Below are positions 71 through 63,655 of a stretch of 64,000 bases of DNA, piece after piece (position 1 is the first letter of the stretch; the number at the start of each line of letters is the position of its first letter). The stretch is from Eledone cirrhosa (lineage: Eukaryota), in contig OZ024755.1 of assembly GCA_964016885.1 (NCBI GenBank), forward strand, positions 39,184,001-39,248,000. The letters are read 5' to 3'. Below the pieces are notes generated by a model. It saw only the letters and a program-made list of their open reading frames with translations. It had not been told where the DNA came from and did no database searches. A program made the translations under genes and the position numbers.

Positions 71-437
71 ATAAAATAAAGTTAAATAAAAAGTAAAATG
101 TTTAAAATTTAGCTTCGTTTATTGCTGCTATATATATTTCAGTGACAGCCATCTTTGGCTGTGACCTCTTCAGGCAGTCCGAATTAGTGTGGTATAGACA
201 ACAACATATGTACTTGTCTATACCACACTAATTTGGACTGCCTGAAGAGGTCACAGCCAAAGATGGCTGTCACTGAAATATATATAGCAGCAATAAACGA
301 AGCTAAATTTTAAACATTTTACTTTTTATTTAACTTTATTTTATATTACTCCGGAGTAACCAAACCAACCTGCGCACTTCGTCGAGTGCTCCAGCCTGCA
401 TACTGAGGTGTGGTATACAACCAACATATACTCAAAA
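71..437 (+). mobile_element. (TA)n-flanked fold-back mini-element, family A (hammerhead-bearing, putative Penelope pLTR derivative)
   Basis: Near-perfect ~130-bp inverted arms (71-201 / 214-345) with a 12-nt loop, then a ~90-bp tail (TACTCC...GTCGAGTGCT...). Homologous copies at 34392 and 55729, tail fragment near 10345. Confidence 0.8.
238..290 (+). ncRNA. Minimal type-I hammerhead ribozyme motif
   Basis: ctgc-CTGAAGA-ggtcacagcc(aaagat)ggctgtcact-GAAA-tatat-ATA-gcag. Stem I ctgc/gcag, stem II, palindromic stem III, NUH triplet. Mirror copy on - strand at ~125-177. Confidence 0.8.
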
Positions 438-485
438 TCTCTCTCTCTCTCTCTATATATATATATATATATATATATATATATA

Positions 486-648
486 TAACAAAGGAAATGT
501 GGTAAGGAACCAAATGGACCATGACGCACCAGAGTACTCAATACTTAGGGTAGTAGAGTGGGAAATAGGAAAAAGTATGACCCCGACGGCAGAGCTCAAG
601 TCGTCGAAATGGCTTGAGCTCTGCCGTCGGGGTCATACTTTTTCCTAT
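486..648 (-). mobile_element. (TA)n-flanked fold-back mini-element, family B
   Basis: 35-bp inverted arms (566-600 / 613-648) plus tail containing GAGTACTC. Copies at 11031, 17282, 34151. Confidence 0.75.
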
Positions 649-671
649 ATATATATATATATATATATATA

Positions 672-1095
672 TATTTATTAAAATAACAGATTAAAGTTTA
701 AGCATAGAATCGGTGCTTTGTGGTTTTGTCTTTGCGTGTAATTGTTTTTCAGCTCCAAATAATGACGTATTATATTCGTTTTTTCCCCTTCTTTGCCAGG
801 GAACGTTTCCACGAACTAAAGTATCGTCTTCCTGTCTTCCTCCGGTTGCAACGTTTTTTGAAATATTCACTTCTGCGTTTACAGATTGACTTTGTTAGTT
901 TCAGAAGATCCCGTTAAGGGTAAAAGCAGCGATTCTTTGCTTAAATTTTAACCTGTTATTTTAATAAATCATTTATTGTAATTTTTTGTTGTCGTGAAAG
1001 GGACATAATCCCTTGGACTTTATCCTGTGAAGGGGAAGCTATAATATTTGGGTCTTTTGGCCCAAATATTTGAACTTTGTTTGAAACAAAATATA
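672..1095. mobile_element. TA-flanked element with ~45-bp inverted segments, family C
   Basis: ttaaaataacagattaaagtttaagcatagaatcggtgc is inverted against gcagcgattctttgcttaaattttaacctgttattttaa (926-965). Related segment at ~31060-31135. Confidence 0.55.
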
Positions 1096-1139
1096 ATTTT
1101 TTTTTTTAAACAAAAAAAAAAACAAAAAAACGCCAAAAC

Positions 1140-2060
1140 ATGGCGCCCCTCCCCCACACTCTTCGTCTCAGTGGTTTAAACGTTGCGGAAAATAACGCTG
1201 CCCTTCCCACAACAAATATGAACACCAACACGGGAAAACGAAAGGCTGGTCTCCGCATTCACAGGATCCCACCAGGACTTGACATGTGGTGGTTCCTGAG
1301 TTGTGGGACTGTGGAGGAGACGGATACCGTCCCGATAGAGGTTACAAGGACTGCTAGAGAGGACTGGTCCGGGGTTTACCTGGAGATACTTCTCAAGATC
1401 AGGCCGGAGAATATAAAAACAATCCTGGACCACATCCGTCTTCAGAACGGGACGGTGATACATATAATGACGAAGGGCAAAATGCCGCATTGTTTCGTTT
1501 GTGGAGAAACGACGCATTTGCGAAGTTTCTGCCCTCAACTAACGAAAGGTGTAAGAGGTTGAAGAGCTCTACTGCTGCCGACGCCGGGGCGAGGACCACC
1601 ACCAACACCAGCACTGGCAAAACCACCAGCAACAACACCAATGGAAACGCCACCGCCAAAATTTGCTAGCCGGGGGGAGGGAGCTGTCCAATTCCCTCTC
1701 CCCCCAAAATACACACATAAAAACATGGGCATGCCGTGGCTAATGATGCGCAGACATGCGCTGAGGCTGCGCCATCTCCAGATATTCTGCCTAAACGGTG
1801 AACAGGTGTGGTCGCCGTTTGTCAGACAGGCCTTTCCGCAGTTCGTCTTTTTGACTAAGCTGCAGTCCTGTGTTAAGAAGAGACCCAGACTGGGTGACTG
1901 GCATCTGGAATGTTGCCAGGCACTCACTGCCTTCTAACAGGCGGGCAATGCAGTCAGTGGTACTTCCACTCTCGAGTTCTATAGAGGATTAGTGGTGGGC
2001 ATGTACGACGACCTACTTGGAGAGGGTCTGGGCGTCGACGAAGTCGAACCCACCTGGACA
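1140..2060 (+). mobile_element. Internally deleted Tx1/L1-like LINE remnant (ORF1 zinc knuckle joined to ORF2 C-terminal region)
   Basis: ORF 1140-1562 ends in a CX2CX4HX4C knuckle (CFVCGETTHLRSFC). 1727-2050 (GMPWLMMRRHALRLRHL...VWSPFVR...GDWHLEC) is homologous to the ORF2 piece at 35504-36115 (-). Confidence 0.75.
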
Positions 2061-60785: not shown

Positions 60786-60900
60786 GTTCTTCTGGTTTTA
60801 TAATTTCACAAAGTTTTACCAATAGAGGGAGAGTCGGTTTCTAACATAGACACAAGACTCTCTCATTGGAATTTACACAACATCAACTAGGTAGATCTGT
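60786..60900 (-). mobile_element. Dong/R4-like 3' UTR terminal fragment in (TATG)n
   Basis: Matches 50467-50583. Confidence 0.88.
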
Positions 60901-62387
60901 ATGTATGTATGTATGTATGTATGTATGTATGTATGTATGTATGTATGTATGTATGTCTGTCTGTAAGTATGCATGTATGTATGATGCATGTATGTATGCA
61001 TGTATGTAAGTATGTATTTATGAATCAATGTATGTATATATGTTTGTATATATATGTATGTATGTATGTATGTATGTATATATGTATGTATGTATGTATG
61101 TATGTATGAATCAATGTATGTATATATGTTTGTATGTATGTATGTATGTATGTATGTATGTATGTATGTATGTATGAATGAATGTATTTATGAATCAATG
61201 TATGTATATATGTATGTATGTTTGTATGTACATGTATGTATGTATGTATGTATGTATGTATGTATGTATGTATGTACGTATGTATGTTGACATCATTGTA
61301 TTCTATATGTGCCTGCATTTCCTTTTTCTGCTTCCTTCTCTCTTACATTGGCTGAGCCAATCAGATGTCAGCATATATGCATATATATATATATGCATAT
61401 ATATATATATATATATATATATATATATATATATATATATATATATATATATATATATATATATGTGTGTGTGTGTGTGTATGTAATGTATATATGTAAT
61501 ATATATATATATATATATATATATTACATTTATATATATATACATATAAACAATCATACATATATATAAACATATATATATATATATATATATATATATA
61601 TATATATAGAAGGCATGATAAAATGGGAATATTACTATATATATACATATATAGAAGGCATGATAAAATAGGAATATTACCAAATCCTTTCCTGGAACCA
61701 TTCAGCATCAGCAATTGTGTTTTAACGAATAGAAAACTGATAATGTGTTTTCGTGCTTGGTTTTCGTCGATGTTGGACAAAGGATATTAAAATATAGAAT
61801 CTAGTATTAGACCAAAAGTAAAAAAAGTTATAAGGTTTCCACTGTTTATTTAATTTAGTCTCCACTGCAACCACTTATTCAGCTGACATTCACTGTTTTA
61901 CTTTAAACTTGGCTAAGCCATACTCACCACTGTCTCATGCTTTCAATGTTACTAATGGTTGACATTTTGCTCTCCTTCATAATGCTGAATATAAATAATA
62001 CCAGCCTTTACAGTCACCTTCTTCCCCTCTCCCCCCCCTCTCTCTCTCTCTCTCTCTCTCTCTCTCTCTCTCTCTCTCTCTGTCTGTCTCCCTTGCTCTC
62101 TCCATCGGTTTATATATCTATCTATATATAATAAGACTAAATCATAATAACATTATTTCTGTCATATAACACAACGTACAGCTCAATACTTATTCAGGAT
62201 AAAAACTATATCTTACAGAGCTTCATTTATATTTAGGTATAAAGTATGTATATATATATATATATATAGTATAAAGTATATATATATATGTGTATATATA
62301 TATATATATATATATATATATATATATATATATATATATATATATATATATATATATATATATATATATATATATATATATATATAT

Positions 62388-62826
62388 AGGAGGAGGTTAT
62401 AGTTCACTTGAAGCATTGTGTAATGAGGTATAAACGTTTGTGTATGTATAATAAAGCCAAAACAATGCAGGTATGGACATAGAATAGAAAATGCAAATGC
62501 AAAATATATTGTTGACAATTATCTTTTACCTTAGATTTATTTAAATGTCCTTAATTTTCGAGATAATATCTCTTCTTCGGAGGGAAGTAAAGCGGTTAAA
62601 CCATGCTGACAGGAATGACTGTCAGCATGACTTGGCAAGCTATTTAGAACACTGGTTTAACCGCTTTACTTCCCTCCGAAGAAGAGATATTATCTCGAAA
62701 ATTAAGGACATTTAAATAAATCTAAGGTAAAAGACTAATTGTCAACAATATCTTTTGCATTTGCATTCTTTATTCTATGTCCATACCTGCATTGTTTTAG
62801 ATTTATTATACATATACAAACGTTAT
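62388..62826 (-). mobile_element. Fold-back mini-element, family I
   Basis: ~165-bp inverted arms (62440-62603 / 62653-62826), inner hairpin catgctgacag/ctgtcagcatg, tail on the left (related sequence near 55495-55530), (TA)n on both sides. Confidence 0.8.
62673..62707 (+). ncRNA. Minimal hammerhead motif (core variant CCGAAGA)
   Basis: cct-CCGAAGA-agagata/ttatctc-GAAA-a-TTA-agg; mirror copy at ~62549-62583. Confidence 0.65.
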
Positions 62827-62938
62827 ATATATATATATATATATATATATATATATATATATATATATATATATGTCCCAAGGGCTATGATACCATCGAC
62901 ACCATAAACACAGAGCTGGCATATCTAAGAACTAACTA

Positions 62939-62994
62939 ACTGCCTGATGAGGTCATAGCCATACAATGGCTATCATCGAAATATATGTAGCAGT
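62939..62994 (+). ncRNA. Minimal hammerhead motif, family A relative
   Basis: actgc-CTGATGA-ggtcatagcc(atacaat)ggctatcatc-GAAA-tatat-GTA-gcagt; inside a ~165-bp TA-flanked island. Confidence 0.82.
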
Positions 62995-63561
62995 AAATAC
63001 AGGATTATGAGTTCACGCAATTGACTTATGTTTCGTCACTATATATATATATATATATATATATATATATATATATATATATATATATATATATATATAT
63101 ATATATATATTCGGTACCGCGGCCGATTAACTCAATCGATATGCAAATTAGGCTGCTCAGCCGTTAATATGCATAAGGAAAGTATATACTTTCAGACGTT
63201 CAACCTTCTGGCAGGAAGGTATACGTTGCTGACGATAGCTAATAAGCTTGAAACTAGTACAGCGTTCCTTTGTCAGTGTTGAACAAATGAGCAACGATGG
63301 TTGCTAGACACTGTACGGCTTAATTCGGGATGTTTGTTTACAAACACACCGAGCATTATAATAAATGTTCGGTGAATCCATACGTACATATATATATATA
63401 TGCGTGCTTGTATGTATATATATATATATATACATACTACTGTACGTCTGTATACATATATGTATGTACGTATACATACTTATATTTAAGTAACAGCCGT
63501 ACTAAGAGGGGGAAATGAAATTTCGTTTCATTTTTTCCGTTTTAAATATATATATATATAG

Positions 63562-63655
63562 CGAAATAAAATAACAAGGACCAATGGTCCCTCCTTCATT
63601 ACGTTTATTGGTCGGTGACGCGCGTTTCGCCACTGATCAGCTCAAGGTTCGAGTG
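63562..63655 (-). mobile_element. TA-abutting element end with non-canonical hammerhead-like motif
   Basis: - strand cgaaCCTTGAgctgatcagtggcGAAAcgcgcGTC; terminal sequence resembles 22-52. Confidence 0.4.

Follow-up and report, generated by a model that had tools for sequence, protein, structure and literature searches.

Hammerhead-bearing islands between (TA)n tracts in the Eledone cirrhosa genome as mostly truncated ends of coding Penelope-like elements, with two ORF-less families probably hitch-hiking on them

Endonuclease-positive (EN+) Penelope-like elements (PLEs) are described as inserting in units marked by heavy 5' truncation, a pseudo-long terminal repeat (pLTR) bearing a hammerhead ribozyme, an adjacent inverted and 5'-truncated copy, a tail at one end only and a preference for (TA)n (PMC8557442, PMC3846280). 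Craig et al. (2021; PMC8557442) reported that the truncated copy is inverted, that one end bears a tail of 30-40 bp and that the Hydra clade targets (TA)n, as well as non-autonomous head-to-tail Chlamys elements such as MRC1, and Arkhipova et al. (2013; PMC3846280) described the tail and argued for self-priming. The hammerheads of PLEs were characterized by Cervera and de la Pena (2014; PMC4209133) as minimal and palindromic, with a U3-A8 variant and with opposite-strand pairs 100-700 bp apart, found mostly in truncated PLEs. For Poseidon of Anolis, Frangieh et al. (2024; PMC11167929) identified in vitro two reverse transcriptase (RT) start sites non-homologous to the cut DNA, and described the hammerhead as protein-assisted and dispensable for insertion in vitro. 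That PLEs mobilise retrozymes has also been proposed (Cervera and de la Pena 2020, PMC7229834; Li et al. 2026 preprint, 10.64898/2026.07.22.740005). Active Penelope families are listed in an octopus repeat annotation (PMC13282606), in which the word 'ribozyme' does not occur. Here we compare with these systems a 64,000-nucleotide stretch of Eledone cirrhosa contig OZ024755.1 (positions 39,184,001 to 39,248,000; hereafter the window), part of a 3.0-Gb animal genome, in which hammerhead-bearing islands lie amongst (TA)n tracts.

Islands were delimited by hand from a masked self-BLAST, an inverted-repeat search having been swamped by (TA)n. There were 32, occupying approximately 11.3 kb (18%) of the window and belonging to 18 families, which are lettered A to Q here with A4 counted as a separate family; a first-pass annotation had rightly recognized many unrelated families, giving some 20 islands and roughly ten families. 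Tracts of (TA)n lay on both sides of 24 islands (on the right of A1 by way of a short (CT)n), on one side of six and on neither side of two, in agreement with the targeting that had been proposed. The same annotation had regarded all islands as non-coding and ORF-less (lacking an open reading frame), moved in trans by PLE proteins. Judged from sequence, most islands are instead the truncated 3' ends of protein-coding PLEs, 20 of the 32 firmly and seven tentatively.

In the well-sampled families the 3' ends were fixed, the 5' ends varied, the long copies reached an RT-endonuclease ORF and the hammerhead lay in the pLTR. Eight families, comprising the 20 islands, could be tied to coding PLEs of Hydra, Neptune or Nematis/Penelope type, clade names that were assigned by motifs and not by a tree, and a further five (A4, F, K, L and O; seven islands) had an ORF link at one locus each. 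Ten family B copies had common fixed 3' ends and a variable hairpin turn point, and three of them extended into shared upstream sequence; the extended copy at locus L031 was ordered pLTR, 563-aa frame, 1.9-kb 3' untranslated region (UTR), pLTR and (TA)n. Full pLTR-ORF-pLTR units were found at L031, L143, L224 and L034, and the Penelope link drawn in the first-pass annotation was upheld by RT and GIY-YIG ORFs upstream of islands in longer genomic copies. At loci chosen by protein, with long open frames favoured, the window island lay downstream of the ORF in nine of ten B-type and ten of ten D-type cases, which excludes chance adjacency of long copies and ORFs for these two families. Amongst loci chosen by island DNA, an ORF end was found upstream in 13 of 30 for family A (the query being enriched for long copies, and some loci being the two ends of a single insertion), 12 of 30 for E, 3 of 30 for H, 1 of 8 for C (two more having that 3' UTR) and 1 of 6 for F, and for family G in L234. 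Apparent ORF links of P, M, Q and some G copies were rejected, the ORFs being neighbours by chance, either within other elements or on the far side of long TA tracts (Q at L027 and J at L015 were inspected).

The window itself contains one coding island, overlooked when all were taken as non-coding. This is N1 (26040-28447, minus strand), a truncated Neptune-type PLE of 2.4 kb, which consists of the 3' piece of the ORF, a 3' UTR running on to the tail-less end at 26040, and an inverted tailed copy at 27951-28447 with a tail of 40 nt. The ORF piece (27867-27102, minus strand) encodes a CX4CxxC linker and a GIY-YIG domain (Pfam GIY-YIG, E 4.7e-5), matches genomic GIY-YIG loci at 91-98% and is frameshifted near the C-terminus.

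Both the RVT_1 and GIY-YIG domains of Pfam are carried by the family D and Neptune-type ORFs, as at L151 and L044 (family D) and L034 (RVT_1 just below the cut-off). The A, B and H ORFs matched the other PLE ORFs by profile (probability 97.3, E 2.6e-11). Families A, B, C and H, of which C and H were judged on C-terminal parts only, encode DKT rather than DKG, a CxCX5C linker and CxxC...CxH around E/N, and no CCHH; RWK is present at the N-terminus in A (L224), and RWR in B. The motifs other than that at the N-terminus, along with the (TA)n insertions and hammerheads, are shared by A, B and H (and by C, from its ORF end) with the Hydra clade (PMC8557442, section 11). That clade is described there as few families, mostly cnidarian and generally below 3 kb, whereas the units here are of approximately 4 kb with 3' UTRs of 1-2 kb; the Atlas clusters nearest to the Hydra-type proteins were cnidarian or ctenophore by few labelled members, which is a lead only. 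From translations, E, N and probably F and G have a CX2-5CxxC linker before GIY-YIG and CCHH, and are thus Neptune-type, and the family D ORF has DKG and GxKF with a reduced cysteine linker. A search with the family B endonuclease returned 61,061 loose candidates, which is not a copy number, and all 150 scored matches were at least 92%. The population is a known kind of debris, unusually dense (approximately one insertion per 2 kb, compared with the described EN+ PLEs) and diverse, the Hydra-type ORFs of which escape standard domain scans.

That the type I hammerheads are real, as first proposed, was confirmed by descriptor searches. A strict descriptor (core, stem II and stem I each of at least 3 bp, palindrome not demanded) had 12 matches in the window, all 12 with a self-complementary stem III, against a mean of 0.10-0.13 and a maximum of 2 in dinucleotide block shuffles (2 x 100). 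A relaxed descriptor, which demanded the palindrome and tolerated a bulge and a long loop II, had 15 matches against a shuffle mean of 0.06 and maximum of 1 (100 shuffles), and a (TA)6+ tract lay 49-168 nt downstream of every one of these 15 cleavage sites. Of the 14 cores listed in the first-pass annotation nine are complete, their true starts being 242+, 11312-, 16434+, 28682+, 34494-, 55265+, 55829-, 62676+ and 62944+. Four others (5973+, 8381+, 33398+ and 25739+) possess the core, stem II and palindrome but a stem I of 2 consecutive bp only, 5973+ being a U3-A8 variant and 25739+ having an intact mirror copy at 25611-, and the last, 4300-, is degenerate (A6 changed to G). The minus-strand motifs exist, but the positions given for them had marked the downstream end. 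Six matches were additional to that list (173-, 16278-, 25611-, 62580-, 63229+ and 63694-). An Rfam scan showed no hammerhead family among the 150 of 382 matches listed, which were simple-repeat noise.

Two-sided pair changes in BLAST-collected copies were found at 6 of 21 pairs in family B, five of the six lying in stem II and each occurring in 4-7 of 26 distinct sequences, at 2 of 22 in C and at 1 of 13 in P; E (0 of 8) and F (0 of 13) had none, and the counts for A, D and M were inflated by misregistered alignment rows. Folding energies were unremarkable for isolated hammerheads (z -0.1 to -2.3) and lower for a 279-nt part of P (z -4.2), and stem I was longer in P (6 bp) and M (8-10 bp). 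In family E, a young family (8381, 33398; L082-L110), the core, stem II and palindrome are kept and stem I has 2 bp in nearly all of 30 copies, so that this hammerhead may be inactive or completed in trans. By eye, a family H hammerhead (L136, 1480-1590; window, 17360-17435) has a U3-A8 core, a stem II that is very long and interrupted, a stem III of 5 bp whose loop is palindromic, and a GUC site, and that of family L an apparent U4A core and a 4-bp stem III; none was seen in families I, J and O. The motifs share with minimal PLE hammerheads (PMC4209133) the palindromic stem III, long stem II, short stem I, 9/10.1 bulge, U3-A8 variant and opposite-strand pairs, and differ in that the Hydra-type motifs are without the bulge and G10.1-C11.1 pair and have a stem II of 9-15 bp mismatched at the fourth pair, as well as in the unusual stems II and III of family H. 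Cleavage by these hammerheads is predicted from sequence and structure. No 5' end at a hammerhead cleavage site was seen in the window, where the four H copies and B3 begin upstream of the site.

The arms of the islands were informative as to how insertion may proceed. The single architecture envisaged for all islands, with paired inverted arms, applied to roughly half of them; E1, E2, A4, G1, M1, O1 and P1 are single-armed. The tail, put at some 90 bp, has that length in some families and ranges by family from 40 to 98 nt, the Hydra-type tails (up to 80-98 nt) being longer than the 30-40 bp described for EN+ PLEs (PMC8557442). Automatic pairing in two-armed insertions of A, B, G, H and N found one tailed and one tail-less end in 64 of 72 (duplicates were removed only roughly, and D, for which the reference anchor missed, and N34 yielded no pairs), a strict pairing that is counted here in addition to the published traits. 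In 24 of the 64 the 5' reach of the tail-less arm exceeded that of the tailed arm by more than 25 nt, and three had arms without common sequence, hence neither arm is a copy of the other. Window examples of non-copy arms are A3 (55731-55974, minus strand), where a tail-less arm of 217 nt with hammerhead 55829- is joined to the last 38 nt of the tail only, and H2 (11032-11151, minus strand), with a tailed arm of 63 nt and a tail-less arm of 52 nt. At 13 of 15 end sites a TA run of the element, of at least 3 nt, was in phase with the target, the summed overlap of 63 exceeding the null mean of 15.4 and being reached in 0 of 200,000 draws (p<5e-6); the end table of family E was left out as an artefact of a TA-containing reference. 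Poseidon (PMC11167929) likewise has two internal RT start sites delimiting a tail, cutting and extension of both strands, an AT-rich target and a predicted dimer, but its start sites are non-homologous to the cut DNA, whereas 13 of 15 here have 3-7 nt of in-phase TA.

Together, the tailed/tail-less pairing, the non-copy arms and the end sites on TA runs suggest twin priming by TA annealing, and the islands are very probably dead-on-arrival insertions of many EN+ PLE families, with P and M as a minority moved in trans. The GIY-YIG endonuclease of the element would cut a (TA)n tract on both strands, the RT-endonuclease probably acting as a dimer, and the two 3'-OH ends would prime reverse transcription at two fixed RNA sites 40-98 nt apart, each usually situated where a short UA run could pair with a (TA)n end. 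The two complementary DNAs (cDNAs) would mostly end early and be joined head to head, giving the order (TA)n, tail-less inverted arm, tailed arm, (TA)n, and the ORF-less tandem units of P and M, each with its hammerhead, would use the PLE machinery in trans. The hammerhead itself would probably act in RNA processing, as a dimer or with the assistance of protein, and is not required for a single insertion, given that each of the four H copies in the window begins within it. A more specific version, in which both cut (TA)n ends anneal in telomerase-like manner to the two UA runs and give two separate cDNAs, with P and M inserted likewise from circular or multimeric RNA, is offered tentatively, its chances being a little short of even; if true, it would make the islands direct footprint evidence for PLE proteins mobilising animal retrozymes.

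Some results weigh against twin priming by coding PLEs as the origin of the islands. Seven of the 72 pairs were tailed twice and one was tail-less twice, although we read three of the eight as belonging to the interior of compound insertions, and 28 of the 64 regular pairs were plain hairpins with both arms ending at the same point, which self-priming explains equally well. The TA overlap was scored where the reference runs beyond the end site and two of the 15 values were taken by eye; each outer end site rests on one long copy per family, and the overlap was 0-1 nt at the outer site of D and 2 nt at one A site. Pfam gave no RT or GIY-YIG match on the Hydra-type ORFs, islands of Q, I and J had no ORF tie, and those of A4, F, K, L and O were tied at a single locus.

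Two further observations concern the end sites. In the G copies L180 and L186 the last 24 nt before the inner end site were repeated many times in tandem, which suggests repeated re-priming. In full-length units (L145, 526-575; L224, 1514-1570; L046; L034) approximately 28-55 nt separated the outer end site from the probable start of the ORF downstream of it; a full transcript primed in its upstream pLTR would thus yield only pLTR-sized cDNA, which may explain the excess of short islands.

Families P and M differ from the remainder in consisting of ORF-less head-to-tail units. The P unit is of 431 nt, with one copy in the window (P1, 63110-63542, plus strand; hammerhead 63229+, stem I 6 bp), and all 30 sampled loci contained unit sequence only, up to approximately 4.5 units. 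The M unit, of approximately 570 nt, is represented by M1 (54907-55436, plus strand), with an internal 22-nt minisatellite and a canonical-like hammerhead at 55265+ (stem I 8-10 bp, GUC); most of 12 fetched copies had a head-to-tail junction, and none an ORF. The longest stop-to-stop frames were 69 aa in P and 112 aa (antisense) in M, neither family had a tblastn match to 10 PLE proteins at E 0.1, and no similarity was found to seven autonomous-family references. Nevertheless, 29 of 30 P arms (28 from a systematic count and one, L211, read separately) ended at unit position ~371 or ~427, nearly all against (TA)n, whilst the 5' ends were scattered and the inverted partner arms were complementary. 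Where P had an inverted arm, one arm ended at each site in 11 of 13 loci (two unresolved), unit junctions being excluded as ends, and M had, by eye, two end sites ~35-45 nt apart. Both families are dispersed across many chromosomes. P-like contigs also occurred in sequencing runs of three other organisms, with 9-13 contigs each at low depth and the kind of source not given, and two had a head-to-tail junction.

As short ORF-less tandem units with one type I hammerhead each, P and M match by sequence the definition of non-LTR retrozymes (PMC7229834; 10.64898/2026.07.22.740005), and share with these and Chlamys MRC1 their AT-rich head-to-tail organization; the M unit is longer than the 150-450 bp described, and P and M are known here from DNA alone, no RNA run being among the sequencing runs listed, which speaks neither for nor against expression. 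They carry the PLE insertion footprint and probably hitch-hike on PLEs. Mobilisation of retrozymes by PLEs was proposed from co-occurrence in 2020 (PMC7229834) and given support from phylogeny in 2026 (10.64898/2026.07.22.740005), whereas P and M offer the footprint itself, namely two fixed ends, an inverted arm and (TA)n, and so bear on which machinery moves animal retrozymes. The word 'tail' does not occur in Li et al. (2026 preprint, 10.64898/2026.07.22.740005). Within the literature searched, which left subscription journals mostly outside and did not take in files S1 and S2 of Craig et al., where mollusc Hydra families may be held, there was no count of complementary ends, no mention of arms that often fail to be copies of each other, no start-site TA overlap and no retrozyme with a PLE footprint.

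As PLE traits, the inverted arm, the tail, targeting of (TA)n and minimal hammerheads have all been published, and what appears new is the set of PLE families seen as truncated ends, together with two ORF-less hitch-hikers. That the islands as a whole form a radiation of ribozyme mini-elements lacking ORFs and moved in trans by PLE proteins is very improbable: 20 of the 32 are in families that possess an ORF of their own and seven more have a single-locus link, 13 of the 14 cores listed in the first-pass annotation are in families that run 5' into their own RT-endonuclease ORF (11 firm, two single-locus), and 5' ends differ copy by copy where fixed ones would be expected. Of the listed cores only 55260 (family M) fits that idea, along with the unlisted family P; it stands for these two, in which 30 of 30 P loci lacked other sequence and M had its repeated junctions, but is refuted as a general account, and a new class of ORF-less ribozyme elements fails as the headline. 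Were P and M satellites spread by DNA-level recombination, their head-to-tail arrays and the minisatellite inside M would be accounted for, but dispersal over many chromosomes and the fixed ends by (TA)n with scattered 5' ends and complementary partner arms make that reading very improbable.

Inverted arms and TA flanks could also recall miniature inverted-repeat transposable elements (MITEs) or fold-back DNA transposons, bounded by terminal inverted repeats and duplicating a TA target. Neither fixed terminal repeats at both ends, fixed internal structure nor a transposase partner was found; arms are unequal and made asymmetric by the tail, each copy has a junction of its own, many have one arm only and the long ones code for RT and GIY-YIG, so this origin is exceedingly improbable, as the first-pass annotation had likewise judged. 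A different end chemistry for the same elements merits more weight, although we regard it as rather unlikely: the endonuclease might cut the element itself, at TA runs within a DNA intermediate, or snap-back, that is self-primed, synthesis might give rise to the second arm. Craig et al. (2021; PMC8557442) ascribe the tail to endonuclease resolution and Arkhipova et al. (2013; PMC3846280) read junction palindromes as self-priming, the plain hairpins agree with the latter, and a TA-cutting enzyme would produce an identical overlap statistic. Snap-back, however, is incapable of producing arms that each hold sequence missing from the other, and in the work of Frangieh et al. (2024; PMC11167929) the tail was traced to two sites at which RT starts, and both strands were extended. 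The islands provide a natural experiment on how PLEs form inverted, tailed microsatellite insertions, a question posed by Craig et al. (2021; PMC8557442), and both this question and that of retrozyme mobilisation are made directly testable by young families in which open frames are long and start sites defined.

The remaining Hydra-type islands comprise those of families A, B, C and H. A1 (74-453, plus strand) is a family A 3' end with a tail-less inverted arm at 74-211, a direct arm with a tail of ~98 nt, and hammerheads 242+ and 173-; in A2 (34396-34724, minus) the tail-less arm of 213 nt, with hammerhead 34494-, exceeds the tailed arm of 117 nt, and A5 (10030-10402, plus) is a diverged copy with an internal deletion. 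The A-related A4 (62874-63039, plus) has a single arm with hammerhead 62944+, and a Hydra-type ORF lay 1 kb upstream at one locus. Family B is represented by B1 (11216-11468, plus; hammerhead 11312- on the inverted arm), the fold-back B2 (16182-16621, plus; hammerheads 16434+ and 16278-, tail 90 nt), the diverged fold-back B3 (20810-21044, plus) and a subfamily with compensatory stem II changes, B4 (28478-28782, plus; hammerhead 28682+), and family C by the fold-back C1 (25418-25831, minus; hammerheads 25611-, intact, and 25739+). H1 (488-645, minus) is a 3' end truncated inside its own hammerhead, and H3 (17285-17516, plus; tail 80 nt) and H4 (34153-34375, minus) are fold-backs.

Amongst the other types, E1 (8289-8501, plus; core 8381+, stem I 2 bp) is a Neptune-type 3' end and, like E2 (33246-33516, plus; core 33398+), a single arm. 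Family G comprises the 3' end G1 (4140-4354, minus; degenerate hammerhead 4300-), an older tailed piece, G2 (4439-4700, minus), and G3 (33581-33824, minus), which has a tailed and a tail-less arm. D1 (62389-62823, minus) is a fold-back of the Nematis/Penelope-type family D, which encodes RT and GIY-YIG, with hammerheads 62580- and 62676+ and a tail of ~45 nt. The islands with ORF links at one locus include F1 (5900-6100, plus; U3-A8 hammerhead 5973+), which is without (TA)n flanks, and the old fold-back F2 (32183-32635, plus); the fold-back L1 (674-1000, plus), with a decayed variant hammerhead near 898 by eye, and the tailed remnant L2 (30957-31143, strand not assigned); the two-armed K1 (17551-18453, minus), with decayed hammerheads and a weak link; and the 3' end O1 (55495-55678, plus), linked by eye. 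I1 (28817-29075, plus), of which no second copy was present among fetched loci, and J1 (33839-34048, plus), in which no hammerhead was seen, are tailed fold-backs, and Q1 (63561-64000, minus) is a two-armed insertion leaving the window, its hammerhead 63694- having a long loop II.

Several other repeats occupy the window. A 10-kb satellite array at 39044-49201 consists of ~263 copies of a 38-nt unit with 94% matches, and a 45-nt tandem array of 55 copies at 21448-23917 arises directly from a dispersed repeat (21298-21447) that recurs at 14487, at 56160-57666 and in many fetched loci; by appearance, the latter array would be a satellite derived from a short interspersed nuclear element. Broken non-LTR RT frames at 35000-37058 (minus) and 1728-2049 (plus), similar pieces of which lie beside several fetched loci, are presumably L1/Tx1-like, and pieces of a different non-LTR element that has a (TACA)n/(TATG)n microsatellite at its end (29075-29626, 49560-52440 and 60788-60897) we take to be RTE-like. 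A dispersed repeat family without a hammerhead match (38164-38767, 52596-53091 and 59074-60207) is tied to (TATG)n and not to (TA)n. A perfect (CT)n/(AG)n hairpin was also present at 32634-32717, as was, at 38816-39029, a TA/CA tract enclosed by a perfect inverted repeat of 52 bp.

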